Positions 8,927-51,228 are shown, numbered from the stretch's first letter. The stretch is 64,000 nt of DNA from an uncultured Acidobacteriota bacterium (GCA_963843385.1 CAWJJY010000007.1:1974028-2038027), one strand, 5' to 3'. The notes: generated from the letters alone by a model not told the origin. Numbers and translations: made by a program.

Positions 8927-9099
8927 CGAGTGTCCCTTCTCGCGCTACACAGAACTGGTCACGTTGCTGGGTTTAGACCCTCGGCCGGCGGCGGATGTTA
9001 CATCGAGAACCCTCGCAATTTGCATGATCGTTGCCCAGGTGTGTGACCTTCTGATATCTGAGTGGTCTAATAGGAATAAGCGAACGTGAAAGGTCATTC

Positions 9100-10806: not shown

Positions 10807-10814
10807 GAGGTCCC

Positions 10815-13115: not shown

Positions 13116-13506
13116 CGTCGCCTCGACGGGGCATCCGACATGGACGCAAACGACGGCCGATCGTTGCGGTCGAACAGATCGGACCATCAGTCTCCCATGC
13201 ACGACACGGGCCAGTATCCGAGGCGAGGCGGGCGCCGGTAGTGGCGTCGCTGGTTGAAGTTGCACGCCACGGAACCCGGGTCGCCCGATCGCCGGCGTTT
13301 CATTCTGCGACGATGCGCGGCACTTTGAGCCTCGACTCTGCGACACCTGACGCCGGTAGGTGTATGCTGGTCGCGATCATCGGTCGTGCAACAGGTGATC
13401 GCTCCTCAGGTACGCGGCCGACGGTCCACTGGCCGCACGAACGACGGAGCTCCCGACGCGTCGCTCCCCGCCCCTTCGATCATCCAGACCCCCGTGACTG
13501 GCGGTC

Positions 13507-15192
13507 ATGACACTCCATCGAGATCTGCAGCTCACGGAACTGCTGGAATTCCGACGGGAAGAGGGTCAGATCTGGATGCACGAGCAGCGGGTCCTGATCC
13601 TCAGCGCGGCGGCCATGGGTCTGCTGCGCAAGGAACTGATCGACACGCTGGGGCAGGACAACGCCCGGCATGTCCTGATGCGCTTCGGCTTCGCCGACGG
13701 TTATCACGACGCCATGGCGCTGCGTGAGCACTTCAACTGGCATGATCCGCTGGAGGGCCTCGCGCTCGGGCCGGCGCTCCACTCCCTCGAGGGGTTCGTG
13801 TTGGCGGATCTGATTCATCTCGACTTCGAGGCTCGCGAGGGCAGATTCGATGCGCGCGGGATGTGCCGCCATTCGTACGAGGCCGAGCAGCACCTCATTC
13901 AGCGTGGCGCGAGCGATGACCCCGTCTGCTGGACGCTCGTCGGGTACGCGAGCGGATATACGAGCGCGTGCACCGGGTTGGAGATCTATTTCAAGGAATT
14001 GGCGTGCGCGGCCGCGCACGCCCCCGAATGCACGCTCATCGGCAAGGACGCCGGCAGCTGGGAGGGTGAGGCCGAGCGCCTGCGGAGGGACTACCGCGGC
14101 CCCGTCCTTGCCGAGGAAGTCGCACGGATTACGGGCGCGGTGCACGCCGAGCGCCAGGCCACGGCCAAGCTGGAGCGAGGCATCGCACGGCAGTCGGTCG
14201 ACGTGGACCTGCTGCACCGGCGCGTGACCGACTACGCCCTCACCCACCACCTGGTGCTGGTCAGCCAGGCCCTTCGCGCCGCGCTCGAACTCGCCGCCCG
14301 GGTCGCTCCGCTCGATACGACCGTGCTCGTGAGCGGTGAGAGCGGCACGGGCAAGGAGGCCGTGGTCCGGATGATTCACGAGCAGAGTTCGCGCGCGCGC
14401 GGTCCGCTGGTGTGCATCAACTGCGCGGCCATGCCCGAGATGCTCCTGGAATCCGAGCTCTTCGGCCACGTAAGGGGCGCGTTCACCGACGCCGTGCGCG
14501 ACAAGGCAGGCCTCTTCGAGGTCGCGAGCAACGGCACGCTGTTCCTGGACGAGGTCGGCGAGATCCCGCTCTCGCTGCAGGCAAAGCTCCTCCGAGCCCT
14601 GCAGGACGGTGAGATCCGGCGCGTCGGCGGTGAGAAGACCATTCGCGTCAACACGCGCATCGTCGCGGCCACCAATCGCGACCTGCGGGGCGAGGTCCAG
14701 GCGGGGAGGTTCAGAGAAGATCTCTACTACCGGCTCGCGGCCTTCATGCTGACGGTGCCGCCGCTGCGCGAACGGCGAGAGGCCATCCCGGCGCTCGCGC
14801 AGGCGCTGCTGCAGCGCGTGTCGGCGCGGTGCGGAAAGCACGTGCTGACCATCGCGCCGGACGCGATGACCAGGCTGATGGACTATGAATGGCCCGGCAA
14901 CGTGCGGGAGTTGCAGCACGTGATCGAGAGCGCGGTCATCATGGCCACGGGCCCCCGGATCACCGCCGCGGAACTGCCTACCGATCTGCACGCGCCCGCC
15001 GGGGCACCCGCGGGGGGCTCCTCCTTCGATCTCACGCTGCACGAGCGTGAGGTCATCACCCAGGCGCTCGCGCGGTTCAAGGGCAACCGCCGCCGCGCGG
15101 CCGAAGCGCTGAACATCAGCCGGGCCACGCTCTGGAGGAAGATCAAGCGGTACGGGGTAACGCAGGCTGGCGACACCGACTCCGAGGCCTGA
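13507..15192 (+). CDS. Sigma-54-dependent transcriptional activator of the XylR/DmpR type (XylR_N + V4R sensor, AAA+ domain, Fis-type HTH)
   Basis: N-terminus: EGQIWMHEQRVLILSAAAMGLLRKELIDTLG..ARHVLMRFGFADGYHDA. V4R-like block: CWTLVGYASGYTSACTG...CAAAHAPECTLIGK. AAA+ motifs: SGESGTGKE, ESELFGHVRGAFTDA (a GAFTGA variant), LFLDEVGEI. C-terminal HTH: NRRRAAEALNISRATLWRKIKRYG. Confidence 0.9.
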   Translation: MTLHRDLQLTELLEFRREEGQIWMHEQRVLILSAAAMGLLRKELIDTLGQDNARHVLMRFGFADGYHDAMALREHFNWHDPLEGLALGPALHSLEGFVLADLIHLDFEAREGRFDARGMCRHSYEAEQHLIQRGASDDPVCWTLVGYASGYTSACTGLEIYFKELACAAAHAPECTLIGKDAGSWEGEAERLRRDYRGPVLAEEVARITGAVHAERQATAKLERGIARQSVDVDLLHRRVTDYALTHHLVLVSQALRAALELAARVAPLDTTVLVSGESGTGKEAVVRMIHEQSSRARGPLVCINCAAMPEMLLESELFGHVRGAFTDAVRDKAGLFEVASNGTLFLDEVGEIPLSLQAKLLRALQDGEIRRVGGEKTIRVNTRIVAATNRDLRGEVQAGRFREDLYYRLAAFMLTVPPLRERREAIPALAQALLQRVSARCGKHVLTIAPDAMTRLMDYEWPGNVRELQHVIESAVIMATGPRITAAELPTDLHAPAGAPAGGSSFDLTLHEREVITQALARFKGNRRRAAEALNISRATLWRKIKRYGVTQAGDTDSEA

Positions 15193-15305
15193 CGACGGGG
15201 AGTAGACAGGACGCCATCTCGGGGCCAACCTGCGCTGCACCCGACCCGCTTGCTCACGCCCAGAGGTGTGCGATCAGGACAAGGCGAGACGGCAATCCCG
15301 TCGCG

Positions 15306-17510
15306 TCAGCGGACGACGTACATCGGGAACCGCGGGAACGCGAAGGTCCCCGCCTGATCGTCGATGACGTTGACCTGGCACGTATAGAGGCCGGGTGCGA
15401 GCGAGCCGGGAGCGACCGTCAGCTGGAAGCCGACAGCCTTCCGGTCCGGGACGGTGAGCGCGTCGGCGGCGGTGACCTCGGTCTGATAGACCGGCCGCGA
15501 TCCCTTGAAGAAGGTCAGATTCGACAGCACGTGAACCGGCGCGCCCGGCGCTGGTCGGGAACTCCTGGCCGAGGCCGGCGGCGCGGCCTGTGCCCCAGAC
15601 GTCGTTGCCGGCTCCTTCTCAGCCGGTCTACCCGGATCGTACAACTCGTAGAAGACGGCGAACGGCTGACTGCCGGACACGACTCGCGCGACGCTCGGAA
15701 CGAGTTCATCGGTCCCGCGCACCAGCGGATCCACGGCCTTGCTCTTCTTCGACGCAGCCGGACGCATCGTCCCGAGAACAACCGAGCTGAGCTTCACGTC
15801 GGTCCGATCCAGGTTCGGCACGATCAGCGTGCTGTCGAGCGATCCGACCGTGCCGACCTGGTTCTCTCGCACGACGACCTTCAGCTTGTAGACTCCGGGC
15901 GGCAGCTCGAAGCTCGTGTCGTACTGAACATTCCGGCGCCGGACATCCTGCGTCGCGTTCACCGACAGCCGGACCGTGTCGCGAATCCATGCCACGGGAG
16001 TGTTCCGGCCGTCGCGCACCACGCCAAGCACGTCGAGCGACGCCCGCTCGGTATCGCTCGCCTTCGAGAACGGGATGTAGGACCCGGGTACGATCAGCCA
16101 GAGCGGCACGCGGTACCGGTTCTCCTGCAGCCGGAAATAGCCCGCTTCGCCATGCATGGGCAGGTCGGTCACTGCCAGGTCGGACAGCAGGTACTCCTGG
16201 AGCTGCTGCTCGCGGTCGTCGCGGCCGGAGTGTGAGAAATCACGCGGACCGTAGTAGCCGGAGCGGTACTCGAGCTTCAAGCCCTGACGCTTCGTTGCGA
16301 CCCTGATGCGGCGGTAGCGCCCGTCCCGGGCCGAGTTGGTGCTCGAGTACCCGAGGAGATAGTAGGCGGTCGTATCCTTGACGACCTGGTCGAAGACCAC
16401 GCCGAGATCGTTGGTGTCGAAGAAGGCGTGGCCGCCGGTATCCTCGGCGATCTTCGACAGGGTGTCCTGCGATGCGCTCATCTGGTTCCGCGCGTTCTCG
16501 ACGGTCCGGCCGGAAAATGCGCCCTGGCCTCTCACGCTGGCCTGGCTGGCATCACCGCCGGGCACCGAGGCCTGCAGGCCCCGTGCGTCGGCCGCGTAAA
16601 TCGACATGTTGGCGCGCACCGCGCGGTCGGTCAGCGTGCGGAGCGCGGCCTCGTTCTCCAGCCCCTGCTGGGTCATGCCCGAGCTGAAGTAGATGATGGA
16701 CTTCTTCTGCTCGATGCCTGCCAGCACGTCGGCCAGCGAGCGCAGGGCATCGATCCGGCGATCGGTATTGAAGATGTTGAACTCGGAGTCGTCTGCCGCG
16801 AACGCGTTGCCGGTGTCAGGCGTCTCGTCGGCCGCGCCGGTAGTACCTTCGGCGAAGCCGGCCGCCAAGGTCGGATCCAGGCTGTTCAGGGCGGTCAGCA
16901 GCGCCTGGCGATCCGTCGTGAAATCCTGGGGCACGCCGAGCGAGGTGCCGAGCGACACCACCGCCACGGTGTCGGCCGGAGACAGCTTCGTGTTGACGTA
17001 GTCGCGCGCCGACTGGATGGCGCGTGCGACATCTTCCGGCTGCATCGAGCTGACATCGAAGAAGAACACGAGCACCCGCCGGTCCCGGAGGTCCATGGCC
17101 GGGCGCGACGAGAGCGGGGCGGCCGGAGAAGCGGGTGCAACGGGCGCGGCCGGCGCCGGATTGACCGGCGCCTTGTTGAGGTTTGCCAGCAGCGGCGCGG
17201 CCGGTTCTACGGCGGCCGGCATCGGCGCGGTGTCGAGCTCCTCGAAATCGAACGTGCTGATCGACTGGGGCCGGTTGTCCTCGGTCACCACGAAGTCGTC
17301 AGCGGTCAGCCCACGCACGACCTGTCCGTTCTTGTCGCGAACCACCACGTTCACGATGACCATGTCGCGCGCGGCGCGGAAGGTCACCGTTGGCTGGGCG
17401 CCTTGCGGTACCCGCGACTGCTGCGACTGTGAGGCGTGCAGCGGCAGGCAGAACACGCCCGCCATCATGACGGCAACAAGGCGAGGACGGACGAGCAGGT
17501 GGCGTCGCAT
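15306..17510 (-). CDS. VWA domain-containing secreted protein (VWFA-related acidobacterial type)
   Basis: Signal peptide MRRHLLVRPRLVAVMMAGVFCLPLHASQ. N-terminal block: TFRAARDMVIVNVVVRDKNGQVVRGLTADDFVVTEDNRPQSISTFDF. MIDAS-like VLVFFFDVSSM. The start lies 3 nt after the stop of the upstream barrel gene. Confidence 0.8.
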   Translation of the reverse strand: MRRHLLVRPRLVAVMMAGVFCLPLHASQSQQSRVPQGAQPTVTFRAARDMVIVNVVVRDKNGQVVRGLTADDFVVTEDNRPQSISTFDFEELDTAPMPAAVEPAAPLLANLNKAPVNPAPAAPVAPASPAAPLSSRPAMDLRDRRVLVFFFDVSSMQPEDVARAIQSARDYVNTKLSPADTVAVVSLGTSLGVPQDFTTDRQALLTALNSLDPTLAAGFAEGTTGAADETPDTGNAFAADDSEFNIFNTDRRIDALRSLADVLAGIEQKKSIIYFSSGMTQQGLENEAALRTLTDRAVRANMSIYAADARGLQASVPGGDASQASVRGQGAFSGRTVENARNQMSASQDTLSKIAEDTGGHAFFDTNDLGVVFDQVVKDTTAYYLLGYSSTNSARDGRYRRIRVATKRQGLKLEYRSGYYGPRDFSHSGRDDREQQLQEYLLSDLAVTDLPMHGEAGYFRLQENRYRVPLWLIVPGSYIPFSKASDTERASLDVLGVVRDGRNTPVAWIRDTVRLSVNATQDVRRRNVQYDTSFELPPGVYKLKVVVRENQVGTVGSLDSTLIVPNLDRTDVKLSSVVLGTMRPAASKKSKAVDPLVRGTDELVPSVARVVSGSQPFAVFYELYDPGRPAEKEPATTSGAQAAPPASARSSRPAPGAPVHVLSNLTFFKGSRPVYQTEVTAADALTVPDRKAVGFQLTVAPGSLAPGLYTCQVNVIDDQAGTFAFPRFPMYVVR

Positions 17511-25259: not shown

Positions 25260-26252
25260 CTAGTGGCAGACACCGCGACCGTTGTCGTGGAACGTTCCGC
25301 CGGCTGCCGCCACGAATTCCCAGGTGTAGCCCGCCGCTTCCAGGCCCAGCTTCAATACGCCGTAGGTGACGCCACGAACCAGGCTGTTCGGTTTCGGTGT
25401 GCCGAAGTTGTACAAGTCAGCGCCGCCGGTTCCGACGACGATCTGGACGATGCCGCGCGCCGCGTCAGGACGGCCATCGGGATCCTGCGGTGCGAATCGC
25501 TCGTAGGAATGGTCGTGGCCGTTCAGCACGATCTCGACGTTGTGGTCGTAGAGCACACGCCAGAGGTCACGCATGACGGTGGTCGGCGAGTTCCGGCTCG
25601 ACGACGAGAAGAGCGGATGGTGCCAGTACGCAATCGTACACCTGGCGCTGCTCGCAGACAGATCCGCCTGGAGCCAGTCTAATTGCTGGGAACCCACGGT
25701 CGCCCTTTCCACGCTGTTCAAGGCGACCATGTGCCATCCCGCGTAGTCGTAGCTGTAGTAGCCGTTGCCCTCGGGCCCTGCCGCGCCCTGGAAGTACTGG
25801 AAGTACCCCATCAGCGAGCCGCCTTCATAGTCGTGGTTGCCGGGCGTCGGGCGCGTTCGGGAGAGGAAACGCCCCCAGGTCGGTCCGTAGCAGCGCTGAT
25901 ACTGGGCCAGCGTCGCGCCGCCGTAGACATCGTCGCCGGTAGTGAACACCAACCCTGGAGTCGCATCGATCAGCGCCGCCGTGGATTCGGCCGCGCCCGG
26001 GCACTGGCCGATGTCTCCGGCGCCGACGAAGGTCGGGGCCGTTGGCGGCGGGTCTGGCGGGATGGGGGTGGGCCCGGAGGAGGACGCCTTGCCGCACTGC
26101 GAGATCAGGATCAGCGACGCGCCGATTCCGGCCGCCTGCAGGAAGACCCAAGCCGTCCGAACGACGCGCACCCGGGCGGATCGAGTCGCGTGCAGCCGAC
26201 GCGCAGCGGATTGCCACCCGGAAGGCACCTGTGTTAGGTTCTGGCGGTCCAT
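25260..26252 (-). CDS. Calcineurin-like metallophosphoesterase (secreted or membrane-anchored)
   Basis: Motifs VGAGDIGQC, FTTGDDVYGG, PTPGNHDYE, AYWHHPLFSS and LNGHDHSYERF. An N-terminal hydrophobic segment is present. Confidence 0.85.
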   Translation of the reverse strand: MDRQNLTQVPSGWQSAARRLHATRSARVRVVRTAWVFLQAAGIGASLILISQCGKASSSGPTPIPPDPPPTAPTFVGAGDIGQCPGAAESTAALIDATPGLVFTTGDDVYGGATLAQYQRCYGPTWGRFLSRTRPTPGNHDYEGGSLMGYFQYFQGAAGPEGNGYYSYDYAGWHMVALNSVERATVGSQQLDWLQADLSASSARCTIAYWHHPLFSSSSRNSPTTVMRDLWRVLYDHNVEIVLNGHDHSYERFAPQDPDGRPDAARGIVQIVVGTGGADLYNFGTPKPNSLVRGVTYGVLKLGLEAAGYTWEFVAAAGGTFHDNGRGVCH

Positions 26253-26330: not shown

Positions 26331-27458
26331 ATGCCAGTCCCGACCAAGGCCAGCGGCGACGGATTGATCCTGTCGCCCCGCGAGGCGCTCGTCGCCGGCG
26401 GCGCCGCCGAGGAATTCGAGAAGCGCGTCCAGGAACTCTTCAAGGCGGGCTACCGGAACCTGGTCACCGATCTGCGCGGCGTCACCCAGATCGACAGCGC
26501 CGGCATCCGGTCGCTGGTGCGAGGGCTCACGACCTCGCAGCGGCTCGGCGGCAGCTTCAGGCTCGTGGCTCCGTCCCCGCAGGTGAAGGAAGTCCTCGCG
26601 CTGTCACGCATGGATTCGATCTTCCCGGTCTTCGATTCGATCGATCCCGCGATGACCAAGAAGCGGCCCTGGAAGAGCATCCTGCTCTTCATCGGCGGCG
26701 CCCTGTTGATTGCGGCGTTGGGGCTGAGCGGGTTCTGGCACGGACTTCCGATTCCGGGTGAGACAGGTCAGCTCGATCAGCTCACCGGCCGGGCGCCGAT
26801 CGGGATCGGCACCCCTTCCGCGTCGCCGTGGCAGCCGTTTGTCGAACTGAGCAAGCTGGTCCTGGCCGCCACCATCGGGATCATCGTGACGGCCGTCCAT
26901 CGCCGGTACCGAAGTGAGCGGCCGCAAACCCAGTCGATGGAACAGGCCCAGGTGCTGCTGTGCATCTCGGGCGCGATGATGATGATCATCATCGGCAACT
27001 CGCTCGCGCGGGCCTTCGGCATTGCCGGCGCCGCAAGCATCATCCGCTTCAGGACACCGGTCGAAGATCCCAAGGACATCACGATCCTGTTCCTGCTGAT
27101 GGGGCTGGGGATGTCGGCGGGCTTGGGAGCCTTCGGGGTGGCCGGGCTCGGCACCTTGTTCCTCTGCGCGCTGCTCGTCGTGCTCGATCGCGTCGGATCG
27201 CGGCGGCCGCGAACCATGATGGTGGACATCGCCGCCGAAGGCCGCGATTTCCCGACCTCCCACGTGCAGAGCGTCTTCGCCCGCAACAAGGTCATCTTCG
27301 AGCCGCGCGAGGTGTCGCAGGGCAAGGAGATGTCGGTCCGGTATCACGCGCTGCTCGACGCGGACCAGTCGCTCGAAGATCTGAGCGAGCAGCTGATGGC
27401 CGGCGGCAAGGCGGGCGTCAAGGCGGTATCCTGGGAACTGCCCAAGAAGAGCGAATGA
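26331..27458 (+). CDS. Fusion protein: N-terminal STAS (anti-sigma-factor-antagonist-like) domain + DUF4956 membrane domain
   Basis: ATG 26331 follows GGGAATGGGAG. STAS block: LVTDLRGVTQIDSAGIRSLVRGLTTSQRLGGSFRLVAPSPQVKEVLALSRMDSIFPVFDS. TM helices and the DUF4956 core follow: NSLARAFGIAGAASIIRFRTPVEDPKDITILFLLMGLGMSAGLG. Confidence 0.75.
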   Translation: MPVPTKASGDGLILSPREALVAGGAAEEFEKRVQELFKAGYRNLVTDLRGVTQIDSAGIRSLVRGLTTSQRLGGSFRLVAPSPQVKEVLALSRMDSIFPVFDSIDPAMTKKRPWKSILLFIGGALLIAALGLSGFWHGLPIPGETGQLDQLTGRAPIGIGTPSASPWQPFVELSKLVLAATIGIIVTAVHRRYRSERPQTQSMEQAQVLLCISGAMMMIIIGNSLARAFGIAGAASIIRFRTPVEDPKDITILFLLMGLGMSAGLGAFGVAGLGTLFLCALLVVLDRVGSRRPRTMMVDIAAEGRDFPTSHVQSVFARNKVIFEPREVSQGKEMSVRYHALLDADQSLEDLSEQLMAGGKAGVKAVSWELPKKSE

Positions 27459-27462
27459 CCTG

Positions 27463-28350
27463 ATGCCAGCCAAACGAGGCTCACGGCCGCGCGCGACGCG
27501 GCGCCGATCCGCCGACCGCGTGGTGGTCGCCCCGAAGGGCCGGCGGGATGCCGTGCTGGAAGTCATCGGCGCGGCGCGCAAGCGGCTGATCCTCTCCGTC
27601 TTCCGCTGCGATGACTTCGCGATCCTCGATGGCCTCGCCGACGCGCTCCGGCGCAAGGTGCGGGTCGAGGTGCTGCTGACGCCGCGTGCCAAGGGCTGGG
27701 AGAAGCGCCTCAAGGATCTGTGGGACGTGCTCGAAGGCATGGGCGCCACGCTTCACCGGTACGCGGATCCGGTGGTCAAGTATCACGCCAAGTACATCGT
27801 CGCCGACAAGGGGCCGGCGCTCGTCGCGTCGCTGAACCTGACGCGCAAGTGCCTGACGGGCACGGTGGACTTCGTCGTCACGACCTACAACCGGGGCGTC
27901 GTGTCGGGGCTGACGCGGCTGTTCGATGCGGACCGCACCTCCTCGGGCGGGCCGCTGCCTCGTGGCCTCAGCCCCCGCCTCATCATCGGCCCGGAACGGG
28001 CCCGCCAGCAGTTCACCACGCTCATCCAGCAGGCCAGGCGCAGCATCCGGCTCATCGACCCGAAGGTGACCGATCCCTCCATGGTGTCGCTGCTCAAGGC
28101 CCGCAAGGCCGCAGGCATCAAGGTGACCGTGCTCGGACGCGGGTCGATCCGCGGCCTGGCCACACATGGCAAGCTGCTCGTCATCGACGGGAAGATCGCC
28201 GTCATCGGCAGCGTGTCGTTATCGGCGCTGAGTCTCGACTTCCGCCGCGAGGTCGCCATCGTCGTCACCGACCCGGACGCCGTGAAGACGCTGAACACCT
28301 TCTTTCAACAGAATGCGACCGGCGGCCGCCGCCGTGGCCGGTCCTCGTGA
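27463..28350 (+). CDS. Small cytoplasmic phospholipase D-superfamily protein with two HKD motifs
   Basis: HKD motifs are KYHAKYIVADKGPALVASLNLT and ATHGKLLVIDGKIAVIGSVSLS. No TM segment. ATG lies 4 nt after the upstream stop. Confidence 0.8.
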   Translation: MPAKRGSRPRATRRRSADRVVVAPKGRRDAVLEVIGAARKRLILSVFRCDDFAILDGLADALRRKVRVEVLLTPRAKGWEKRLKDLWDVLEGMGATLHRYADPVVKYHAKYIVADKGPALVASLNLTRKCLTGTVDFVVTTYNRGVVSGLTRLFDADRTSSGGPLPRGLSPRLIIGPERARQQFTTLIQQARRSIRLIDPKVTDPSMVSLLKARKAAGIKVTVLGRGSIRGLATHGKLLVIDGKIAVIGSVSLSALSLDFRREVAIVVTDPDAVKTLNTFFQQNATGGRRRGRSS

Positions 28351-28363
28351 AGGAGCTGGCGAG

Positions 28364-29908
28364 ATGACGGCACCGAGGGGCATTTTCGCGGCCGCATGGG
28401 CGACGATCGTGCTCTCAGCGCCGGTTGCCGCACAACACGACGCCGCGCTGACCGGGGCCGGACTTCGGGCTGCGATCATCCGGTCGGACTCCGCCGGCGT
28501 TTCGGACGCGCGCGCGGCACAGGCGGACGCGCGCGAGGCACAGGCGGCCGCGGCCGAGAAGGCACAGAAGCCCGCGGATCAGGCCGAGGCTGCGAAGAAG
28601 AAGAAGACCCCGGACCAGGCCGCCCCAGAGGAGAAGGCCAAGAAGGCTGGAAAGAAGGAGAAGGAGGCTGCCGCGTCAGCGCCCGAGGACGGGCTGGTCT
28701 GGAAAGACAGGCCGTCGCTGCGATTCGGGAAGAACTTCCAGATGGACCTGCGGGTGAAGCTGCAGGAAGAAGCAATCCAATCGCCGATTGATCTCGCACC
28801 GTTCGGACACGCCAAGACTTTCGAGGGGCACCGGCAGCGCCTGGGGGTCAAGGGCGAGGTCCTTCAGCACTTCGAGTTCGAGGTCGAACGCGACTTCGTG
28901 AACGGCGGCGACTGGAAGAACGTCTACGTCAACTTCAAGTACCTGCCGTTCGCACAGCTCCAGGCCGGGAAGTTCAAGATCCCGTTCGGGTACGAGCTGC
29001 TGACCAGCGCGGTCGATCTGGATTTCGTCTACCGCACGCGCGCCAGCGACTCGATCGCCGCGGGACGCGACGTCGGGGTCATGCTCCACGGGCGCTTGCA
29101 CAAGAAGGTCATTCAGTACCAACTCGGCTGGTTCAAGCACGACGGCGACAACTCCCCTTCACTTGCGCCCCCGGTTCTCCTCCCCGGCGAGCAGGCCGGG
29201 GAACAGAAGGGCGCGATCGCCGGCCGGGTGACCATCGAGCCGCTGAAACTCGGTTCCACGCCGGCGCACCTGAACAGCCTGTCGATCGGTGGGTCGGTGG
29301 TCGTCAGCACGATCCCGGAAGGCCAGAACAACCTGCACGGTCACATGGTGCTCTCCGACAATTTCTTCCATCGTGATTTCTACACCAAGGGCCGCCGCCT
29401 GAGGATCGGGGCCGAAGCGGCGTGGGCGCCAGGACCCTATTCCTTCAGCGCCGAGTACATCCGATCGAGCGAGCAGCGGATCGGCCTCGGCGTCGGGAAC
29501 GATGCCGGCCTGAACACCGATCTGCCGGACCTCACGGGCCGCGGTTGGTATCTCGCCGGGACGTGGGCGCTGACCGGCGAGAAGAAGGAAGGCGGCATCA
29601 AGCCCAAGCGCCCGCTGTTCCAGGGCGGGTTCGGCGCGATCGAACTCGCCGCGCGCTACGAGTCGCTGGGATTCGGGAGCGACGGGCCCGCTGGCGACCC
29701 GGAGTCCAAGAGCCCGCGGGCCGCCAACGTCCGGCGCAATACCGAGCGGGCCGTGACCTTCGGCGTGAACTGGTACATGAACAAGTGGCTCAAGCTGCAG
29801 ATCAACGGCATCAACGAGTCGATCGACGATCCGCTTCGGGGGCCGACGCCCGACTCGCCCAAGACGTCGTGGATGAGCGTTGTCACGCAGTTGCAGTTCG
29901 TGCTGTAA
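28364..29908 (+). CDS. Phosphate-selective porin O/P (OprO/OprP)-like outer-membrane porin with a Lys/Ala/Glu-rich N-terminal extension
   Basis: AGGAG lies before ATG 28364. Signal MTAPRGIFAAAWATIVLSAPVAAQ. Porin_O_P-like blocks: RPSLRFGKNFQMDLRVKLQ, FEFEVERDF, QLQAGKFKIPFGYE, GRGWYLAGTWALTGE, FGVNWYMNKWLKLQ. Confidence 0.7.
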   Translation: MTAPRGIFAAAWATIVLSAPVAAQHDAALTGAGLRAAIIRSDSAGVSDARAAQADAREAQAAAAEKAQKPADQAEAAKKKKTPDQAAPEEKAKKAGKKEKEAAASAPEDGLVWKDRPSLRFGKNFQMDLRVKLQEEAIQSPIDLAPFGHAKTFEGHRQRLGVKGEVLQHFEFEVERDFVNGGDWKNVYVNFKYLPFAQLQAGKFKIPFGYELLTSAVDLDFVYRTRASDSIAAGRDVGVMLHGRLHKKVIQYQLGWFKHDGDNSPSLAPPVLLPGEQAGEQKGAIAGRVTIEPLKLGSTPAHLNSLSIGGSVVVSTIPEGQNNLHGHMVLSDNFFHRDFYTKGRRLRIGAEAAWAPGPYSFSAEYIRSSEQRIGLGVGNDAGLNTDLPDLTGRGWYLAGTWALTGEKKEGGIKPKRPLFQGGFGAIELAARYESLGFGSDGPAGDPESKSPRAANVRRNTERAVTFGVNWYMNKWLKLQINGINESIDDPLRGPTPDSPKTSWMSVVTQLQFVL

Positions 29909-29959
29909 CGCGCGGGTGCGCCTCGTGGCGACGTGGGTTCCTGGCAGGTGAGGTGACGC

Positions 29960-31279
29960 ATGACCACCGGTCGATTGTTCGCGGGCGCGGCGCTGGCCGC
30001 CATCGTGCTGGCCCTGCCGGGCCAGGCGGCCGCGCAAACCGCCGACGACCTCTTCAACGACCAGGTCCTGCACCGGATCGACCTGTGGGTCAACTCGCGG
30101 GACTGGGCCGTGCTGAAGTACGAGTTCGAGACCAACAACTACTATCCGGCAAATCTCAAGTGGAACGGCCAGACCGTCACCAACGTCGCCATCAGATCGC
30201 GCGGCCTGGGATCCCGCTCGGGCGTCAAGCCGGGGCTCAGGGTGGACTTCAACCGCTATGTCACGGGCCGGACGTTCCTGGGCTTGACCGCGGTCAACCT
30301 GAACAACATGACCCAGGATCCGACGGCGGTCCGCGAAGTGATGGCGATGAAGTTCTATCGCATGATGGGCCTGCCGGCGCCCCGCATCTCGCTTGCGGCG
30401 GTCTACATCAACAACGAGTACGCCGGCGCGTACGCGATCGTCGAGGAGATCAACGAGGTCTCGGTCTCACGCCTGTTCGGCGAGAACACCGGCTACCTGT
30501 TCGAATACAAGTGGCAGTTCGCCTGGGGTTTCGAGTACCTCGGATCGGACCTGGCCGCCTACGCTCCGCTGTACGAACCGAAGACGCATACGACCGAGTC
30601 GCAGGGCGCGCTCTACGGGCCGGTCGAGGCGATGATCCGGACCATCAACTCCGCCTCCGACGAGGAGTTCGTCCCGGCGGTCTCACAGTATCTGGACTTG
30701 TCGATCTTCATGCGCATGGCGGCGGTGCAGGCCTACCTCGCCGAACCGGACGGCCTGCTGGGGAACTGGGGCCTCAACAACAATTTCCTGTACCGGTTCA
30801 ACGGCCGGACGCTCAGCCAGTTCATCGCGTGGGACGCGTCGAGTGCGTTCTACGTCAGTACCTATCCGTTCGACGTGGGCCTGACCGATCGCGTGCTGAT
30901 GCAGCGGGCGATGGCGGTGCCCGACCTCCGGGCCATCTTCTTCAGCACGATCCTGGAAGCGGCCGCCTGGGCTGACCACGCGGACGAGCCGGGACAGCCG
31001 GGGTGGCTCGAGTCGGAGCTGACGCGATTCCAGAACCTGAACCGGTCGGCTGTCCTGGCGGACACTCAGAAGCCCTGGTCCAACGACGAGTACGACGTGG
31101 CGTCGGCCGACATCCTGTCCTTCGCCCGGACTCGCAGTCCGCTGGCCCGTCAGGTCGTCGCGCGGATGACGGCGCCCGACGGCCCGTACCCGACGCCGCT
31201 GTCGGCGATCGCCAAGGCCGGAGCTGCGCGAAAGACTGCTGCCAGGGCGCCGGAGGTCAGGAGAGCGCCCCGTCGATAG
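29960..31279 (+). CDS. Secreted CotH family protein (atypical protein-kinase fold)
   Basis: Signal MTTGRLFAGAALAAIVLALPGQAAAQ. CotH-like blocks: IDLWVNSRDWAVLKYEFETNNYYPANLKWNGQTVTNVAIRSRGLGSR, LNNMTQDPTAVREVMAMKFYRMMGLPAPR, NNFLYRF. Confidence 0.8.
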   Translation: MTTGRLFAGAALAAIVLALPGQAAAQTADDLFNDQVLHRIDLWVNSRDWAVLKYEFETNNYYPANLKWNGQTVTNVAIRSRGLGSRSGVKPGLRVDFNRYVTGRTFLGLTAVNLNNMTQDPTAVREVMAMKFYRMMGLPAPRISLAAVYINNEYAGAYAIVEEINEVSVSRLFGENTGYLFEYKWQFAWGFEYLGSDLAAYAPLYEPKTHTTESQGALYGPVEAMIRTINSASDEEFVPAVSQYLDLSIFMRMAAVQAYLAEPDGLLGNWGLNNNFLYRFNGRTLSQFIAWDASSAFYVSTYPFDVGLTDRVLMQRAMAVPDLRAIFFSTILEAAAWADHADEPGQPGWLESELTRFQNLNRSAVLADTQKPWSNDEYDVASADILSFARTRSPLARQVVARMTAPDGPYPTPLSAIAKAGAARKTAARAPEVRRAPRR

Positions 31280-31862
31280 CGCGCTTGGTGAGGCGCTGGC
31301 AGCGGCCGGCCTTCTCGCGGGTATCGAGAAACGCGATCATCTTGCGGCGCAGATCGGCCGGGTCGACCGGCGTCACCGCGGTGGAGAGGACGCCTCCGCA
31401 GAACTCGCCAAAACCTTCCAGCAGTTTTCCCTTCCAGCCTGCTGACTTCCCGCGCTCTTTGGCGCGGTAACAGGTGTCCGGCCGGGGCGCGAACCCCAGG
31501 ATCTGCGTGAGCCAGGCCTCGGGCAGTCCGGCCGCAACCCCCGCCGCGATGGCCGTGTCCACATAGGGCGCAGCGATCACGATGTGCCCCTGTTCGAGGG
31601 CGGGCCGGATCTCCCACCGCACGCGGAACGCGAGATCGGCGGCGTAGAGGAGAATCAGTGTCCTCGGCGAGAGCGTCAGGTATCGTCGCTTTCCAAGGCG
31701 CAGCTCGTAGAAGAGGCCCGACGCATCCCAGCGGCACACGCCGCCCGAAACCTTGCGCCCTCGGATGTGATGCCACAGATTCCTCGTGGCGTCCTCGAGA
31801 TCGGTGCCGCGGGTGCCCTCGACGGCAATCAACCGTGACCTAGCGGCGGATCGGCGCGCCAT
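31257..31862 (-). CDS. Thymidylate-kinase-fold protein with a degenerate P-loop (predicted pseudokinase partner)
   Basis: LIAVEGTRGTDLED replaces the EGxDGxGKS/T P-loop. LLYAADLAFRVRWEIRPALEQGHIVIAAPYVDTAIA parallels the Tmk LFAADR...I.PAL..G..V..DRY core but lacks the DR(Y/F) motif. It overlaps the upstream Tmk-like gene by 23 nt and the convergent CotH 3' end by 23 nt. Confidence 0.6.
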   Translation of the reverse strand: MARRSAARSRLIAVEGTRGTDLEDATRNLWHHIRGRKVSGGVCRWDASGLFYELRLGKRRYLTLSPRTLILLYAADLAFRVRWEIRPALEQGHIVIAAPYVDTAIAAGVAAGLPEAWLTQILGFAPRPDTCYRAKERGKSAGWKGKLLEGFGEFCGGVLSTAVTPVDPADLRRKMIAFLDTREKAGRCQRLTKRAIDGALS

Positions 31863-32652
31863 TGCGGACCTCCGCAGCTGAAGGGCTCCACGCCAGCCAG
31901 TCGGCGATTGCCTCCTGGTTCCACTGTCCCCAGGGGCGGCGCTGACTGTCCTGGAACAGGCGACGAATGTGCCGGTGCTGCTCGTAGATGGGTTGCTCTC
32001 CGTCGATGGTCACGAACTGGAAGATCAGGGCGAGGGACTCGTACTCGCGGATCATGCGCCCGATGAAGCGGCGATAGCTGCCGATCGGATCTGCCACTTT
32101 CGTGATGTCCTGGCCGGCGTCGTAGTACTTGGGCGCGCGCGTGGCGGCCACCCGCGTGGTGGACGTCTCGGCGGACACGGCAAAGTAGTAAACCAGATCC
32201 GGCCAGAAGAGCGGCGCGTGCGCCGCGAGCAGCCAGTCGAGATCGAGGCCGCGCGCCGACGCCCTTGCCAGCGACGTGAACAGGAAGCGGTCGGCCACGA
32301 CCACCTTGCCCTGCCAGAGCGCCGGGAGGATTTCGTTCTCGAGCCGGTGGCGGAAATCGGCCGCGTGCAGCAGGCACAGTTCCTCGGCGCTCAGGGCCCG
32401 CAGCCGGGTGCGCGCCTTCAGCAGCGGCTTGATCGCCCGCGACGAGGTGGATTTGGCCACGACGACCTGGTGGCCTTCATGCTCCAGCCATGTCTTGAAC
32501 AGACGGCGCTGCGTGGTCTTTCCTGCGCCGTCCGGTCCCTCGAAGGCGATCAGCAGGCCCCGCGTCTTCTCGCGGGAACGGACCAGGTCGGAGAGGCGGC
32601 GGGGCAATCCGGGCGTCGCCTGCCGCGGGCGCGATGTCTTGACGGCCATCAA
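31840..32652 (-). CDS. Thymidylate kinase (dTMP kinase) family protein with intact P-loop and a ~70-aa C-terminal extension
   Basis: LIAFEGPDGAGKTTQ (P-loop), LLHAADFRHRLENEILPALWQGKVVVADRFLFTSLA (DRF motif) and the LID-like region TTRVAATRAPKYYD. Confidence 0.75.
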   Translation of the reverse strand: MMAVKTSRPRQATPGLPRRLSDLVRSREKTRGLLIAFEGPDGAGKTTQRRLFKTWLEHEGHQVVVAKSTSSRAIKPLLKARTRLRALSAEELCLLHAADFRHRLENEILPALWQGKVVVADRFLFTSLARASARGLDLDWLLAAHAPLFWPDLVYYFAVSAETSTTRVAATRAPKYYDAGQDITKVADPIGSYRRFIGRMIREYESLALIFQFVTIDGEQPIYEQHRHIRRLFQDSQRRPWGQWNQEAIADWLAWSPSAAEVRNGAPIRR

Positions 32653-43772: not shown

Positions 43773-46028
43773 TCATCCTGCCGCGCGCAGCCCGGCCGCC
43801 TGCACGCTGCCGAGCGTCGTCAGGTTCACGACGTCCTGCACGGAGTTGCCGTACTGCAGGAGCTGAACGGGCAATCGTGTTCCCGTCAGGATGGGGCCGA
43901 CCAGCACCGTGTCACCCACCGCCTGCAGCAGGTGCATGGCCATGTTGCCCGACTGCAGGTCGGGAAACACCAGGACATTGGCGTCCTTGTCGAGCGCGGA
44001 GAATCCGAAGTATCGGCTCCGAATCTCGCGGTTGACGGCCGTGGCGATCTGCATCTCGCCGTCCACGGCCAGGCCCGGAGAGCGTTCCTTGACGATTTCG
44101 GTCGCCCGCCGCACCTTTCGCGCAAACGGGTGGTCGACCGAGCCGAAGTTCGAGAACGACAACATCGCCACGCGGGGCTCGATGCCCAGCAGCCGGACCA
44201 TGCGCGAGGTCAACAGTGCCGTCTCCGCCAGGCCGTTCTCGTCGGGTTCGATGGCGACGGCGCAGTCGGCAAGGAAGAACACGTCCTTCGGCAGCAGCAC
44301 CATGTAGTAGCTCGACACGCGGCTGATCCCGGGCGCGGTCCCGATCGTCTCGAGCATCACACGCAGCGAGTCCGCGTAGTGGTGCTCGATGCCGCCGACG
44401 AGCAGGTCGGCGTCGCCGCTGTGGAGCATCATGGCGCCGAAATACTCCGGCCGACGGAGGCGCTGCTCCGCCGTGGGGCGCATCACCCCGCGCCGGCGCC
44501 GCTGGCGCACGTGCTCGTCGACATATGCATCGCGTTTCGGACTGCGGGAGGGATCCACGATGAGCAGGCCGGACGGGTCCAGCCCGGCGCGAACGAGGCC
44601 GGCGCGAATCTCGGCCTCGTCGCCGAGCAGGACGGGCCGCGCCACGCCTTCGTCAGCGAGGATGGCGGCGGCGCGCTGGATGATCTCGGAGGTGCCGTCG
44701 GCAAAGACGGTCCGAAGGGGTTCCTGCCTCGCCCTCACCATGAGCCGCCGCATCATGCCCGTGCCCGTTCCAATCCTCACGGTCAGGCTCTCCTGGTACG
44801 CCACGTCTTCGACCGGCCGGCCGGCCACGCCGTCCTTCACCGCCTGGCGTGCAACCGCCGCGGACTGGCGAACGAGGATCCGGGGATCGATGGGTTTCGG
44901 CAGCAGGTACTCCGGCCCGAAGCTGAGTCGTTCGTAACCGTACGCCCGGCTGACTTCGTCGGCCACTTCGTCGCGGGCCAGATCGGCGAGCGCCCTCGCG
45001 GCAGCCATCAGCATCCCGTCGGTGATCCGGGCCGCCTGGACGTCGAGGGCTCCGCGGAAGATGTACGGAAAGCTCAGGTGATCGACAATCGCGTTGGGAA
45101 AGCGCGTGAGGCTGGTCGCCACGATCACGTCGCGGCGGCTTTCTCGCGCGGACTCGTAGCCGATCTCAGGTTCGGGCGTCGCCATCGCCAGCACGATGGG
45201 GAACCGCGCCATCGAGCGGATCATCTGCTGTGAGAGCACGCCGCCGGCGGACGCCCCGATGAACACGTCGGCGCCCCGCAGCCCGTCCTCGAGCGCGCGC
45301 GGCGCATCCGCGCGTGAGAAGGCCCGCTGATGAGGTCCGATGTCCTGCCGGTCGGGATGCACGAGGCCGTTGAGGTCGTAGAGCCGGAGCTGTTCGGCCT
45401 TCGCGCCCATGCCGATCAGGAATCGCGCGCAGCCGATGCCGACCGTGCCCGCGCCGCAGATCACGATGGCCGCGTCGGCAATCGTCTTCTCCGCGAGATC
45501 GAGCGCGTTGAGGAGCGCGGCCGCCATCACGACCGCCGTGCTCTGGAGGTTCTCGTGCACGACGGGGATGCGAAGGCCCTCGCACAGGCGCGCGTAGATC
45601 TCGAGGCCTTCAGGGGCCTTGATGTCCTTGAGGTCGATTCCGCCGAAGGTCGGCTCGAGCATCTGGACCGTGTCGACGAAGCGGCCCGGGTCCCCGGTGT
45701 CGAGCTCGAGATCGAACACGTCGATGTCGGCCAGCCGCTTGAAGAGCACGGCCGTCCCTTCCTGCATGGGCTTCGCGGCGAGCGGCCCGACGTCCCCGAG
45801 CCCGGGCACCGCCGAACCGTTGGTGATGACGCCGACCAGGTTGCCACGGGCGGTGTACCGGAACGCCGCGTCGGGATCGGCGTGGATGGCGGCGCCCGGG
45901 AAACACGCACCGGGCAGGTAGGCCAGCCGCATTTCGCGGGCGGTGAGGCACGACTTCGTGGTCCGCAGCTCGATCTTCCCGGGCCGATCCGCTTCGTGGT
46001 ACGCGAGGGATTCATCGGGACGAATCAT
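43773..46028 (-). CDS. MaeB-type malic enzyme + phosphotransacetylase-like domain protein, with a divergent active site
   Basis: Overall collinear with NADP-malic enzyme MaeB (YTARGNLVGVITNGSAVPGLGDVG, EPTFGGIDLKDIKAPE, CGAGTVGIGC, ATPEPEI, FPYIFRGALDV) plus a C-terminal PTA-like half. Its ATG overlaps the stop of the giant upstream gene (ATGA). See the findings for the substitutions. Confidence 0.8.
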   Translation of the reverse strand: MIRPDESLAYHEADRPGKIELRTTKSCLTAREMRLAYLPGACFPGAAIHADPDAAFRYTARGNLVGVITNGSAVPGLGDVGPLAAKPMQEGTAVLFKRLADIDVFDLELDTGDPGRFVDTVQMLEPTFGGIDLKDIKAPEGLEIYARLCEGLRIPVVHENLQSTAVVMAAALLNALDLAEKTIADAAIVICGAGTVGIGCARFLIGMGAKAEQLRLYDLNGLVHPDRQDIGPHQRAFSRADAPRALEDGLRGADVFIGASAGGVLSQQMIRSMARFPIVLAMATPEPEIGYESARESRRDVIVATSLTRFPNAIVDHLSFPYIFRGALDVQAARITDGMLMAAARALADLARDEVADEVSRAYGYERLSFGPEYLLPKPIDPRILVRQSAAVARQAVKDGVAGRPVEDVAYQESLTVRIGTGTGMMRRLMVRARQEPLRTVFADGTSEIIQRAAAILADEGVARPVLLGDEAEIRAGLVRAGLDPSGLLIVDPSRSPKRDAYVDEHVRQRRRRGVMRPTAEQRLRRPEYFGAMMLHSGDADLLVGGIEHHYADSLRVMLETIGTAPGISRVSSYYMVLLPKDVFFLADCAVAIEPDENGLAETALLTSRMVRLLGIEPRVAMLSFSNFGSVDHPFARKVRRATEIVKERSPGLAVDGEMQIATAVNREIRSRYFGFSALDKDANVLVFPDLQSGNMAMHLLQAVGDTVLVGPILTGTRLPVQLLQYGNSVQDVVNLTTLGSVQAAGLRAAG

Positions 46029-51181: not shown

Positions 51182-51228
51182 GGGGGATTACCTGAACCGA
51201 GCCCTCACCGCGTCACCGGCCGCGGCGA

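Follow-up and report, generated by a model that had tools for sequence, protein, structure and literature searches.

The window, a stretch of 64,000 nucleotides from an uncultured soil Acidobacteriota bacterium, carried four consecutive plus-strand genes (g1 to g4), flanked by a divergent phosphatase gene and a convergent pair of dTMP-kinase-like genes (Table 1). Coordinates recomputed from the window sequence agreed with the gaps of 4, 13 and 51 nt given in a first-pass annotation of this DNA, and the divergence from a metallophosphoesterase gene described there was borne out, with a Metallophos domain above the cut-off. The five Pfam families named for the four proteins (PF01740, PF16316, PF13091, PF07396 and PF08757) all passed their cut-offs. 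Terminator-like sites between g1 and g4 did not exceed the number expected from shuffled sequence. A longer reading frame for g3, starting at 28313, was rejected, as the orthologue N-termini gave it no support.

Table 1. Genes and putative promoter of the STAS-DUF4956 locus, in window coordinates.
Feature	Coordinates	Strand	Remarks
Metallophosphoesterase gene, purple-acid-phosphatase-like	25260..26252	-	Divergent from g1; Pfam Metallophos
Putative sigma-70-type promoter	26211..26240	+	TTGCCA, 18 nt, extended -10 TGtTAGGTT
g1, STAS-DUF4956 inner-membrane protein	26331..27458	+	ATG start, GGGAG Shine-Dalgarno
g2, two-HKD PLD-superfamily enzyme	27463..28350	+	Start 4 nt past g1 stop
g3, OprO/OprP-family outer-membrane beta-barrel	28364..29908	+	AGGAG Shine-Dalgarno; 13-nt gap
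g4, Sec-exported CotH-family kinase-like protein	29960..31279	+	51-nt gap; Pfam CotH
dTMP-kinase-like paralogue, degenerate P-loop	31257..31862	-	Convergent; 23-nt overlap with g4 end; weak Thymidylate_kin
dTMP-kinase-family P-loop kinase (FEGPDGAGKTT)	31840..32649	-	Convergent; Pfam Thymidylate_kin

The phosphatase gene and g1 were separated by an intergenic gap of 78 nt, and the putative operon promoter sat within the 5' end of the phosphatase gene, implying a leader of ca. 85 nt. A consensus promoter scan did not flag this element; we read it as a putative promoter because its position and sequence were kept both in the clade of the window and in its sister clade (L006-L014, L004).

The g1 product was composed of a STAS domain of the anti-sigma-antagonist type, a transmembrane helix, a variable loop, a five-helix, MgtC-like DUF4956 domain and a C-terminal domain resembling both ACT domains and the C-domain of MgtC. 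STAS (PF01740) scored 56.4 bits against a cut-off of 22.6, DUF4956 (PF16316) scored 38.3 bits against 30.6, and NCBIfam TIGR00377 reached 52.5 bits, under its cut-off of 53.45. The protein had over 2,200 homologues, and the same architecture, with PF16316, was present in all 120 matches listed; the segment RAFGIAGAA..RFRTPVEDPKD in the DUF4956 membrane domain was invariant. An AF2 model (pLDDT 69) placed STAS at residues 1-108, helices at 114-288 and a beta-alpha-beta-beta-alpha-beta fold at 294-369. In Foldseek searches (TMt, TM-score normalised to target length; TMq, to query length), the STAS domain matched TM1081, SpoIIAA and RsbV with TMt of 0.75-0.89. Identity to the SpoIIAA/RsbV group was up to 34%, and the motif D55-S56-x-G58 (DSxG) was invariant among 17 homologues, S56 occupying what we take to be the position of the SpoIIAA phospho-site Ser58. 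Unlike SpoIIAA and RsbV, the STAS domain here was fused to a membrane protein or, in L087, encoded beside the dTMP-kinase-like pair; no SpoIIAB/RsbW-type kinase was found nearby, no HATPase_c anti-sigma gene occurred in the window, and a PP2C phosphatase lay near the operon only in loci of the sister clade (type B, below). The membrane domain was weakly similar to MgtC (PF02308, 18.3 bits, E 0.003, under the gathering score of 31.4) and the C-terminal domain matched the MgtC C-domain (2lqj, TMt 0.65), but g1 differed from MgtC in its additional N-terminal STAS domain and transmembrane helix and in its gene partners. The literature describes MgtC, a relative of DUF4956, as a regulatory protein with other membrane proteins as binding partners.

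The compact g2 product contained two HxK(x)4D motifs in a single chain and matched PLDc_2 (PF13091) over two stretches, with 95.1 bits against a cut-off of 27. It is a predicted soluble protein with neither a signal peptide nor a transmembrane helix. Among 24 homologues, H108, K110, D115, N125, H235 and D242 were invariant, and K237 was kept in at least 90%. The best Foldseek matches of the AF2 model (pLDDT 84) were the PLD 7e0m, the PPK1 C1/C2 domains, vaccinia F13 and PLD3/4. The first-pass annotation had drawn on the shared fold of PLD and PPK1 catalytic domains; PPK1 was indeed among the best structural matches (TMq 0.64-0.73), but this argument is weak because F13 and PLD3 matched the g2 model equally well, and the N and head domains of PPK1 were missing from g2, leaving a resemblance only. 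Assignment as ClsB (30.4 against 281) or as bacterial cardiolipin synthase (30.3 against 290) was rejected at the equivalog cut-offs, as was assignment as DISARM DrmC (61.8 against a cut-off of 133), for which only generic DrmC matches were obtained.

The OprO/P-family assignment of g3, which carried a Sec signal peptide, was upheld by a near-full-length match to Porin_O_P (PF07396, 95.8 bits against a cut-off of 20.9, profile positions 25-370 of 370), and a PDB search with a profile of 20 g3 orthologues gave matches (E 9e-19) to OprP (2o4v) and OprO (4rjw/4rjx) alone, the only solved relatives. OprP and OprO of Pseudomonas aeruginosa are phosphate- and pyrophosphate-selective porins, and the earlier reading had leaned on that selectivity. 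However, it should not be assumed for g3: the position of OprP Lys121 was Q or L in the g3 family, and Porin_O_P relatives have been tied to other anions in NCBIfam (ExtI) and linked to anions other than phosphate in one proteomics paper. The position of OprP R34 was K and that of R60 was R, with only part of the barrel aligning. A further difference from OprP and OprO was that g3 lacked an upstream Pho box and was co-operonic with CotH and DUF4956 genes rather than a stand-alone Pho-regulon gene. The N-terminal tail of g3, rich in Lys, Ala and Glu (ca. 28496-28739), was not conserved in most orthologues.

The g4 product matched CotH (PF08757) with 105.1 bits against a cut-off of 23.8, and its PDB match was Bacillus cereus CotH (5jd9, 3.5e-6). 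The Sec signal peptide, which ends AAAQ before T, was conserved, and D263, N and D292 were kept in 34 orthologues; the last is the WD Asp, presumably equivalent to D251 of B. subtilis. By its sequence, g4 has intact catalytic residues and is kinase-like by family. D263 occupied the position of the catalytic D228 of the B. subtilis spore-coat kinase, of which the D228Q variant is inactive (PMC7821199). In contrast to the Bacillus protein, g4 was Sec-exported in a non-sporulating diderm, and the substrates CotB and CotG were absent. Given its Sec signal peptide in a diderm, g4 would act in the periplasm or beyond the cell, locations that normally lack ATP.

The divergent gene encoded a phosphatase matching Metallophos (45.4 bits against 21.5), with Metallophos_C (21.7 bits) just below its cut-off of 23. 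All five purple-acid-phosphatase motifs were read in its translation (GDIG, GDDVY, GNHDY, WHH and GHDH), and its closest PDB sequences were purple acid phosphatases (6gja, 5e-8). The N-terminus had a Cys after LILISQ followed by a Ser/Pro-rich linker, and most orthologues had clear lipoboxes; the protein is probably a lipoprotein. Of the convergent pair, the gene adjacent to g4 had a weak Thymidylate_kin match (E 0.0011), clustered with the neighbouring kinase gene and shared 46% identity with the corresponding gene of L087, a distant locus; its family adjoined the cluster in most type-A loci (below), rearranged ones included, and it is a possible accessory member. The outer gene matched Thymidylate_kin (E 9e-24) and 2plr (E 7e-32) and was 62% identical to its counterpart in L087, whose operon has a gene for a stand-alone STAS protein as well. 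This gene could be either an accessory member or a housekeeping tmk, the latter because it passed the dTMP-kinase equivalog cut-off (TIGR00041, 91.6 bits against 83.25). We take the pair to share the fold class of PPK2 (the thymidylate-kinase fold), but this is a resemblance only: for the kinase, PPK2 appeared neither among the Pfam families at E values up to 1 nor among the 40 PDB matches listed, and the matches were to dTMP kinases only.

A relative of g1 was encoded in 227 species-representative genomes. We fetched 80 such loci, nearly all labelled Vicinamibacterales or Acidobacteriota, and counted synteny in the 70 with at least 4.5 kb downstream of g1. The PLD gene followed g1 in 48 of these 70, a porin gene was present in 51 and a CotH gene in 45; the combination suggested by the first-pass annotation thus proved strongly syntenic, with the STAS-DUF4956, PLD, porin and CotH genes complete and in that order in 32. 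Synteny persisted to 53% g1 identity, with flanking genes varying among loci, and was far beyond chance. The same families were still together in rearranged loci (L017, L050, L057, L049 and L092), and closely related DUF4956 proteins without STAS had the same partners in L087, L088, L089, L091 and one JGI contig. A phosphatase family member lay within or adjoining the cluster in 42 of the 70 loci. CotH or porin genes were missing in some loci, the PLD gene was absent in type B, and in 10 of the 70 none of PLD, porin and CotH followed g1 in the conserved layout; L035 had its porin and CotH genes downstream of g1 but on the other strand.

These loci represent a vertically inherited, functionally linked cluster of Acidobacteriota, mainly Vicinamibacterales. 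Its recurrent core is an inner-membrane DUF4956 (MgtC-like) protein whose STAS and ACT-like domains are cytoplasmic, an outer-membrane porin of the OprO/P family and an exported CotH, around which phosphoryl-group enzymes are exchanged. The ancestral form, type A, found in the window, has the cytoplasmic two-HKD PLD, the purple-acid-phosphatase predicted lipoprotein and usually the dTMP-kinase-like pair. The four-gene unit originally proposed was real and syntenic, but probably too narrowly drawn: the PLD is dispensable in one clade, and the cluster is accompanied by the phosphatase and the dTMP-kinase-like pair. The unit is probably larger than four genes, likely including the phosphatase, and the convergent pair are perhaps further members.

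Type B formed a single clade in the phylogenetic tree, placed within type A as the sister group of the window clade. Here the PLD was replaced by Ppx-GppA (exopolyphosphatase) and PhoU in a tight six-gene operon, which in L001 ran g1, porin, CotH, Ppx-GppA, PhoU and M28 with gaps of 36, 11, 10, 37 and 4 nt, and from which CHAD and histidine phosphatase (His_Phos_1) genes diverged. The phoB/phoR genes lay upstream in most type-B loci, and phosphate transporter genes occurred at several (pstSCAB in L001, pstS also in L013, PHO4-type in L003, L008, L012 and L014). This operon, with Ppx-GppA and PhoU beside CHAD, phoBR and pst/pit genes, was the best evidence here for a role in phosphate or polyphosphate. 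Within the window no pst, pho, ppk, ppx or VTC genes were found, which bore out the earlier remark on missing VTC and PPK genes, and no VTC domain occurred in the window's large reading frames or among the genes called in 13 other contexts. A Pho box upstream of 26331 had been proposed as a check. The clade Pho box, GTWACA-N5-GTAACA, was found before phoB and pit genes, but the region upstream of g1 lacked it in the window and in all orthologous loci other than L052 and L053, each of which had a copy with one mismatch; the window contained a single match, at 22938, which was at chance level. With no Pho box and a good -35 box in the putative promoter of g1, direct PhoB control was not indicated. 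The view that every component points to (poly)phosphate chemistry thus kept its domain assignments and gained the Ppx/PhoU/phoBR context of type B, but lost the Pho box and the conserved porin Lys121. Vicinamibacteraceae cells have been reported to store polyphosphate in situ.

By guilt by association in the sister clade, we tentatively favor, at a little short of even confidence, a module for phosphate or polyphosphate handling across the whole envelope, which would be the Gram-negative equivalent of the VTC–DUF4956–CotH genes found in Firmicutes and Actinobacteria. Cytoplasmic enzymes working at the DUF4956 protein would make or trim phospho-anhydrides or phosphodiesters. That protein, gated by its phosphorylatable STAS domain and ACT-like domain, would pass those species to the periplasm or signal their availability. 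The exported CotH could then use them to phosphorylate an envelope target, while the predicted lipoprotein phosphatase and the anion porin would recycle or exchange phosphate with the outside.

A Pho-regulon-type scavenging set with no export step is rather unlikely, though it deserves serious weight. The phosphatase would free phosphate from organic esters, the porin would admit phosphate, pyrophosphate and short polyphosphate, the PLD would recycle phosphate from phospholipids or nucleic acids, and g1 would act as a regulator in the manner of MgtC on PhoR, with CotH auxiliary or unrelated. The recurrence of PAP-type or NPP-type phosphoesterases with the cluster, the OprO/P family of g3, the phoBR, pst and pit genes adjoining type-B loci and the TonB-dependent receptors inserted in several loci are all consistent with scavenging, as is the reported precedent that MgtC promotes phosphate uptake via PhoR. 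However, the missing Pho box at the g1 promoter, in the window and most loci, argues against it, and it leaves unexplained why an exported, apparently catalytically intact CotH is the most constant partner of DUF4956, here and in Gram-positives. Another reading is a system modifying the envelope or an exopolymer, in which CotH would phosphorylate a glycan, a lipid or an outer-membrane protein, such as the Lys-rich porin tail, and the PLD would be a phosphatidyl or phosphoryl transferase building or remodelling a phosphodiester-containing envelope component. In Gram-positives, the DUF4956–CotH genes adjoin Pel polysaccharide loci and influence aggregation, the repeats known to serve as CotH substrates are rich in Ser, Lys and Arg, and Lys-rich, Ser/Thr-containing N-terminal tails occur on the window porin and some orthologues. 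We nevertheless consider this reading improbable: glycosyltransferase or polysaccharide-export genes were found neither in the window nor in the conserved flanks, most porin orthologues lack the tail, and the reading does not account for the link of type B with Ppx, PhoU and CHAD.

It is also conceivable, though very improbable, that the genes are mere neighbors in a conserved local gene order, or a mobile defence island around a DrmC-like PLD nuclease. One large subgroup was flanked by the housekeeping genes FKBP, RluD and sucA/sucB, so that some of the synteny is inherited; the PLD had its generic DrmC matches, and the outer kinase gene may be the housekeeping tmk considered above. Against this, the families stayed together despite inversions, insertions and varied flanks, also in the STAS-less relatives; gaps of 4-13 nt separated genes; the GC content of the operon matched that of its surroundings; and a search for further DISARM or defence components found none beside the PLD, whose DrmC score was far below the cut-off.

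No paper on this exact gene set was found in the literature searched, in agreement with the first-pass annotation, which also noted correctly that DUF4956 and CotH genes recur with a VTC-type polyphosphate polymerase. The closest known relative of the envelope-spanning module favored here is the VTC–DUF4956–CotH neighborhood of Gram-positives, itself uncharacterised, in which the genes for CotH, a polyphosphate polymerase and a DUF4956 protein directly adjoin Pel loci; Pel-dependent aggregation of S. intermedius drops when the DUF4956 and CotH genes are deleted (bioRxiv 10.1101/768473 = PMC7112168; PMC12345266). Compared with the set in streptococci, clostridia and bifidobacteria, the cluster has a two-HKD PLD (Ppx in the sister clade) in place of VTC, a STAS domain fused to DUF4956, an OprO/P-type porin and a PAP-type predicted lipoprotein, and it occurs in diderm Acidobacteriota with no Pel or other polysaccharide genes. 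Both sets pair a DUF4956 protein (MgtC-like transmembrane domain and ACT-like C-terminus) with a secreted CotH, as seen in the window and 45 of the 70 loci, and with a cytoplasmic phosphoryl-transfer enzyme, and the function of both is presumed to concern phosphate.

The four plus-strand genes belonged to a conserved and functionally linked cluster that joins a DUF4956 membrane protein, an OprO/P-type porin, and an exported CotH kinase with exchangeable phosphoryl-group enzymes. Their coordinates and short gaps agreed with the operon proposed in the first-pass annotation, and a signal scan of the operon detected no promoter-like or terminator-like signals above background between the genes, in a window with a GC content of ca. 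67%. All five expected Pfam domains scored above the curated cut-offs: STAS and DUF4956 in the first product, two copies of PLDc_2 in the second, Porin_O_P in the third, and CotH in the fourth. A ca. 40-bp motif, CCTTTGCCCAGCTTTAnCATACGTGGTACCGTTTCGCCAC, was conserved 5' of the STAS-DUF4956 gene in many other of the related loci (numbered L) fetched for synteny comparison (L026, L027, L036, L038, L039, L055, L056, L061, L066–L068, L070–L073, L076–L078, L080, L081, L083–L085), and it can be parsed into a −35 TTGCCC, 17 nt of spacer, and an extended −10 TGGTACCGT. The motif ended only 10–25 nt before the start codon, implying a very short leader, and a regulator may bind within its conserved spacer.

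Coordinates of features in the window and in related loci (L numbers)
Feature	Location	Strand	Remarks
Phosphatase gene	25260-26252	-	Divergent from operon
Putative operon promoter	26211-26240		TTGCCA, 18 nt, TGtTAGGTT; kept in window clade and sister clade
STAS-DUF4956 gene	26331-27458	+	Shine-Dalgarno upstream
PLD gene	27463-28350	+	4 nt after STAS-DUF4956
Porin gene	28364-29908	+	13 nt after PLD; Shine-Dalgarno upstream
Porin N-terminal tail	28496-28739		Low-complexity
CotH gene	29960-31279	+	51 nt after porin; Shine-Dalgarno upstream
dTMP-kinase-like pair	31257-31862, 31840-32649	-	L087 counterpart 14732-16605
c28 gene	L004:11139-12314		Also L015, L019, L021, L034
Probable type-B Pho box copies	L003:4478-4494, L008:2703-2719, L011:3485-3501, L012:4422-4438, L012:1554-1570, L014:3332-3348		Upstream of phoB, PHO4/pit genes
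FHA-GAF-SpoIIE phosphatase	L001:17057-18661		Counterparts in other type-B loci
Type-B 5' leader	L001:9869-10000		Also L012, L014, 5' of STAS-DUF4956
TonB-dependent receptor gene	L088:11613-13535, L090:11956-14149, L092:9937-12168		In or beside cluster
PLD-porin single ORF	L006:11136-13568		810 aa
DUF1501 gene sets	4942-12053		Two sets
XylR-type sigma-54 activator	13498-15192		Near DUF1501 gene sets
1,720-aa protein	46025-51187	-	

A relative of the STAS-DUF4956 protein was encoded in 227 GTDB species-representative genomes, and the best 80 of these loci were nearly all labelled Vicinamibacterales or Acidobacteriota; homologues with the same architecture numbered more than 2,200. Synteny was assessed by tblastn of the window proteins against the loci and by independent ORF clustering. 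The ancestral order was the divergent phosphatase, STAS-DUF4956, PLD, porin, CotH, and a convergent dTMP-kinase-like pair, and the recurrence of the DUF4956, PLD, Porin_O_P, and CotH genes was upheld, as all four stood in order in 32 of 70 loci whose length allowed a judgement. One of the loci, L047, comes from a Luteitalea MAG carrying the cluster. One large subgroup was flanked by the housekeeping genes FKBP, RluD, and sucA/sucB, indicating that the synteny is partly inherited. The retention of the same families in rearranged loci with differing flanks (e.g., L017, L050, L057, L049, L092) argues for selection keeping the cluster together. Scanning 1.8 billion cluster representatives in full with HMMER also recovered close relatives of ca. 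270 aa lacking the STAS domain; in their contexts, PLD, Porin_O_P, and CotH were again present, as were the kinase pair and a phosphoesterase of PAP or NPP type. TonB-dependent receptor genes lay in or beside the cluster in several relatives. In L002, which is almost identical to the window region, the phosphatase, YceI, and CotH genes were split or shortened, and in L006 the PLD and porin genes were read as one ORF; in both cases, indel errors of long-read sequencing seem a likelier cause than biology.

The strongest evidence here for a core role in phosphate or polyphosphate homeostasis was the context of a monophyletic clade (type B) that is the sister group of the window clade, falls inside the ancestral type, and has lost the PLD gene and the kinase pair. 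The operon in L001 encoded the STAS-DUF4956 protein, porin, CotH, Ppx-GppA, PhoU, and an M28 peptidase, its genes being separated by 36, 11, 10, 37, and 4 nt; the remaining type-B loci had STAS-DUF4956 and Ppx in common, and most kept the porin, CotH, and M28 genes. CHAD and histidine phosphatase genes diverged from this operon, glgC and phoB/phoR lay upstream, pstSCAB-phoU or PHO4-type transporters surrounded it, and an FHA-GAF-SpoIIE (PP2C) phosphatase was encoded two to three genes downstream. Vicinamibacteraceae cells store polyphosphate in situ according to independent literature. A conserved segment, TTACGCTATA..GGAGTCAG, was common to the type-B 5' leaders; after it came a GC-rich hairpin that lacked a T-run, and this may be a leader structure.

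The phoB and pit promoters of the type-B clade yielded a probable Pho box, the direct repeat GTWACA-N5-GTAACA, which resembles the TT(A/T)ACA repeats of Bacillus PhoP. Across the window and 84 loci, perfect copies occurred only at type-B phoB and pit promoters, and 14 matches were found at one mismatch or fewer, compared with 2–6 in shuffled sequence. A Pho box upstream of position 26331, as envisaged in the first-pass annotation, was not borne out: this repeat was not present 5' of the STAS-DUF4956 gene in the window and was absent from all but two orthologous loci. Given this absence and the putative TTGCCA/TGtTAGGTT promoter, direct PhoB control of the operon is not indicated by the sequence. 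No phosphate genes were found elsewhere in the window. At some distance from the operon, a 1,720-aa protein carried C-terminal PPDK_N ATP-binding and PEP-utilizers mobile domains behind a large N-terminal part without a Pfam match. Two DUF1501 gene sets were paired with PSCyt2/PSD1 or DUF1800 genes, pairings typical of Planctomycetes and Acidobacteria for which we know of no function, and a XylR-type sigma-54 activator gene lay near them.

Structure prediction and fold search resolved the STAS-DUF4956 protein into an N-terminal STAS domain, a transmembrane helix, a variable loop, five further helices forming the DUF4956 region, whose likeness to MgtC is weak and under the Pfam cut-off, and a C-terminal beta-alpha-beta-beta-alpha-beta domain, which resembles the MgtC C-domain (2lqj) and ACT domains in fold. 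The fold search returned no full-length match and nothing informative for the membrane domain; only the STAS and ACT/MgtC-C domains matched. The STAS domain was of the single-domain anti-sigma-antagonist type; its TM-scores against TM1081, SpoIIAA, and RsbV, when normalised to the length of the target, reached 0.89. An Asp-Ser-x-Gly motif was invariant in the homologue alignment, and by a residue count on the SpoIIAA sequence it would stand at the SpoIIAA phospho-serine position. The FHA-GAF-SpoIIE phosphatase of type-B loci is a candidate for acting on this serine. The best-conserved stretch, RAFGIAGAA...RFRTPVEDPKD, lay between two membrane helices.

The PLD enzyme was a compact soluble protein in which both HKD motifs were invariant or nearly so. 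Its model (pLDDT 84) matched bacterial PLD, PPK1 C1/C2, vaccinia F13, and PLD3/4 about equally, and the earlier argument from the PPK1 fold proved weak: PPK1 was among the top matches, yet no better than F13 or PLD3, which leaves a resemblance rather than a relationship. Scores fell far below all equivalog cut-offs for cardiolipin synthase, the nuclease NucT, and DrmC, and a cardiolipin synthase or NucT identity was rejected. The divergent gene encoded a metallophosphoesterase with five PAP metal-binding motifs, purple acid phosphatases being nearest among solved structures, and the mostly clear lipoboxes followed by Pro/Gly linkers in its orthologues indicate that it is probably an exported lipoprotein phosphatase. 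In the kinase pair, one member had an intact P-loop and scored above the TIGR00041 cut-off, and the other had a degenerate P-loop; dTMP kinases were the sole matches, and a PPK2 identity was rejected. The pair could be either housekeeping tmk or a component of the system. It stayed with the cluster through rearrangements and in the STAS-less relatives, and in L087 its operon contained a stand-alone STAS gene homologous to the STAS domain of the fusion. This arrangement looks like a split version of STAS-DUF4956, and it links STAS, kinase pair, and DUF4956.

The assignment of the porin to the OprO/P family stood, as OprP and OprO were the only PDB matches of the orthologue profile, but the position of OprP Lys121 was Q or L in this family. 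The N-terminal tail of the window porin was rich in Lys, Ala, and Glu and presumably periplasmic; Lys-rich, Ser/Thr-containing tails were also seen in L007, L016, L024, L025, and L049. Such tails occurred in only a minority of orthologues and were rejected as a conserved feature. Known CotH substrates are Ser/Lys/Arg-rich (PMC7821199). The CotH protein had a Sec signal peptide, and the Asp corresponding to D228, the catalytic residue of B. subtilis CotH (PMC7821199), was retained in every one of the 34 orthologues examined, as were the Asn and Asp after it. In some loci where porin and CotH were absent, an unannotated secreted protein of ca. 400 aa (c28) followed STAS-DUF4956, or STAS-DUF4956, PLD, and the kinase pair. 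At the level of motifs c28 is similar to the N-lobe and catalytic loop of CotH, but kinship with CotH is unproven (hhalign probability 0.3%, no Pfam match).

We infer that the cluster moves or senses phosphate species across the envelope. The (poly)phosphate or phospho-ester role first proposed was favoured by the domains, the synteny, and the type-B pho context, while the Pho box was absent and the mechanism is a working hypothesis. At the DUF4956 protein, which its STAS and ACT-like domains would gate, cytoplasmic enzymes would prepare or trim a species of phospho-anhydride or phosphodiester type; CotH would use that phospho-species in the periplasm, and the phosphatase and porin would recycle or exchange phosphate.

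Other explanations were weighed against this envelope traffic of phosphate. A plain phosphate-scavenging set, with the STAS-DUF4956 protein as an MgtC-like regulator, is possible but doubtful. An envelope-modification system appears unlikely. Coincidental synteny or a defence island is very improbable, inherited flanks in one subgroup notwithstanding, since rearranged loci keep the families together and PADLOC returned only generic DrmC-like PLD matches, on which the defence reading was rejected.

CotH-family kinases are widespread in non-sporulating bacteria and often secreted; we know of neither substrates nor a phosphoryl donor for those outside the cytoplasm, and DUF4956, their recurrent partner, is to our knowledge also uncharacterised. 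A more specific form of phosphate traffic, quite unlikely when taken as a whole, would make DUF4956 the missing inner-membrane link that passes a phosphoryl donor (polyphosphate or nucleotide) outward so that exported CotH kinases can work. As parts of that same long shot, the donor would be made in Acidobacteria by a new pairing of the two-HKD PLD and a dTMP-kinase-like heterodimer instead of VTC, and the whole would be governed via the phosphorylatable STAS domain. The two-HKD PLD fold is that of the PPK1 catalytic domains, and the dTMP-kinase-like fold class is that of PPK2. If true, this would be a new way to make or export polyphosphate, and the question of what fuels the extracytoplasmic kinases of bacteria would have a general answer. 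In this cluster the DUF4956-CotH pair occurs in a diderm and is joined by an anion porin of the outer membrane and by exchangeable phosphate/polyphosphate enzymes, and the natural variant wired into a pho, pst, ppx, and CHAD neighbourhood gives the concrete idea of phosphate/polyphosphate traffic across the envelope. The host group abounds in soils and wastewater; it stores polyphosphate and is relevant for phosphorus cycling.

No description of this cluster was found in the literature searched, in line with the first-pass view that the exact combination was not a described system. The closest one is the set of accessory genes adjoining Gram-positive Pel loci, namely cotH, a VTC-type polyphosphate polymerase, and DUF4956, which agrees with the uncharacterised neighbourhood described in the first-pass annotation; in S. 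intermedius, Pel-dependent aggregation is weaker once the DUF4956 and CotH genes are deleted, and a role in phosphate was suspected by the authors of that work (bioRxiv 10.1101/768473; PMC7112168; PMC12345266). Both sets have the DUF4956-CotH pair in common. However, the present cluster lacks VTC, in whose place PLD (or Ppx) stands, fuses STAS to DUF4956, additionally encodes an outer-membrane porin together with a lipoprotein phosphatase, and has no polysaccharide genes nearby. The DUF4956-CotH association had thus already been noticed, and the present cluster is a new Gram-negative variant of it.
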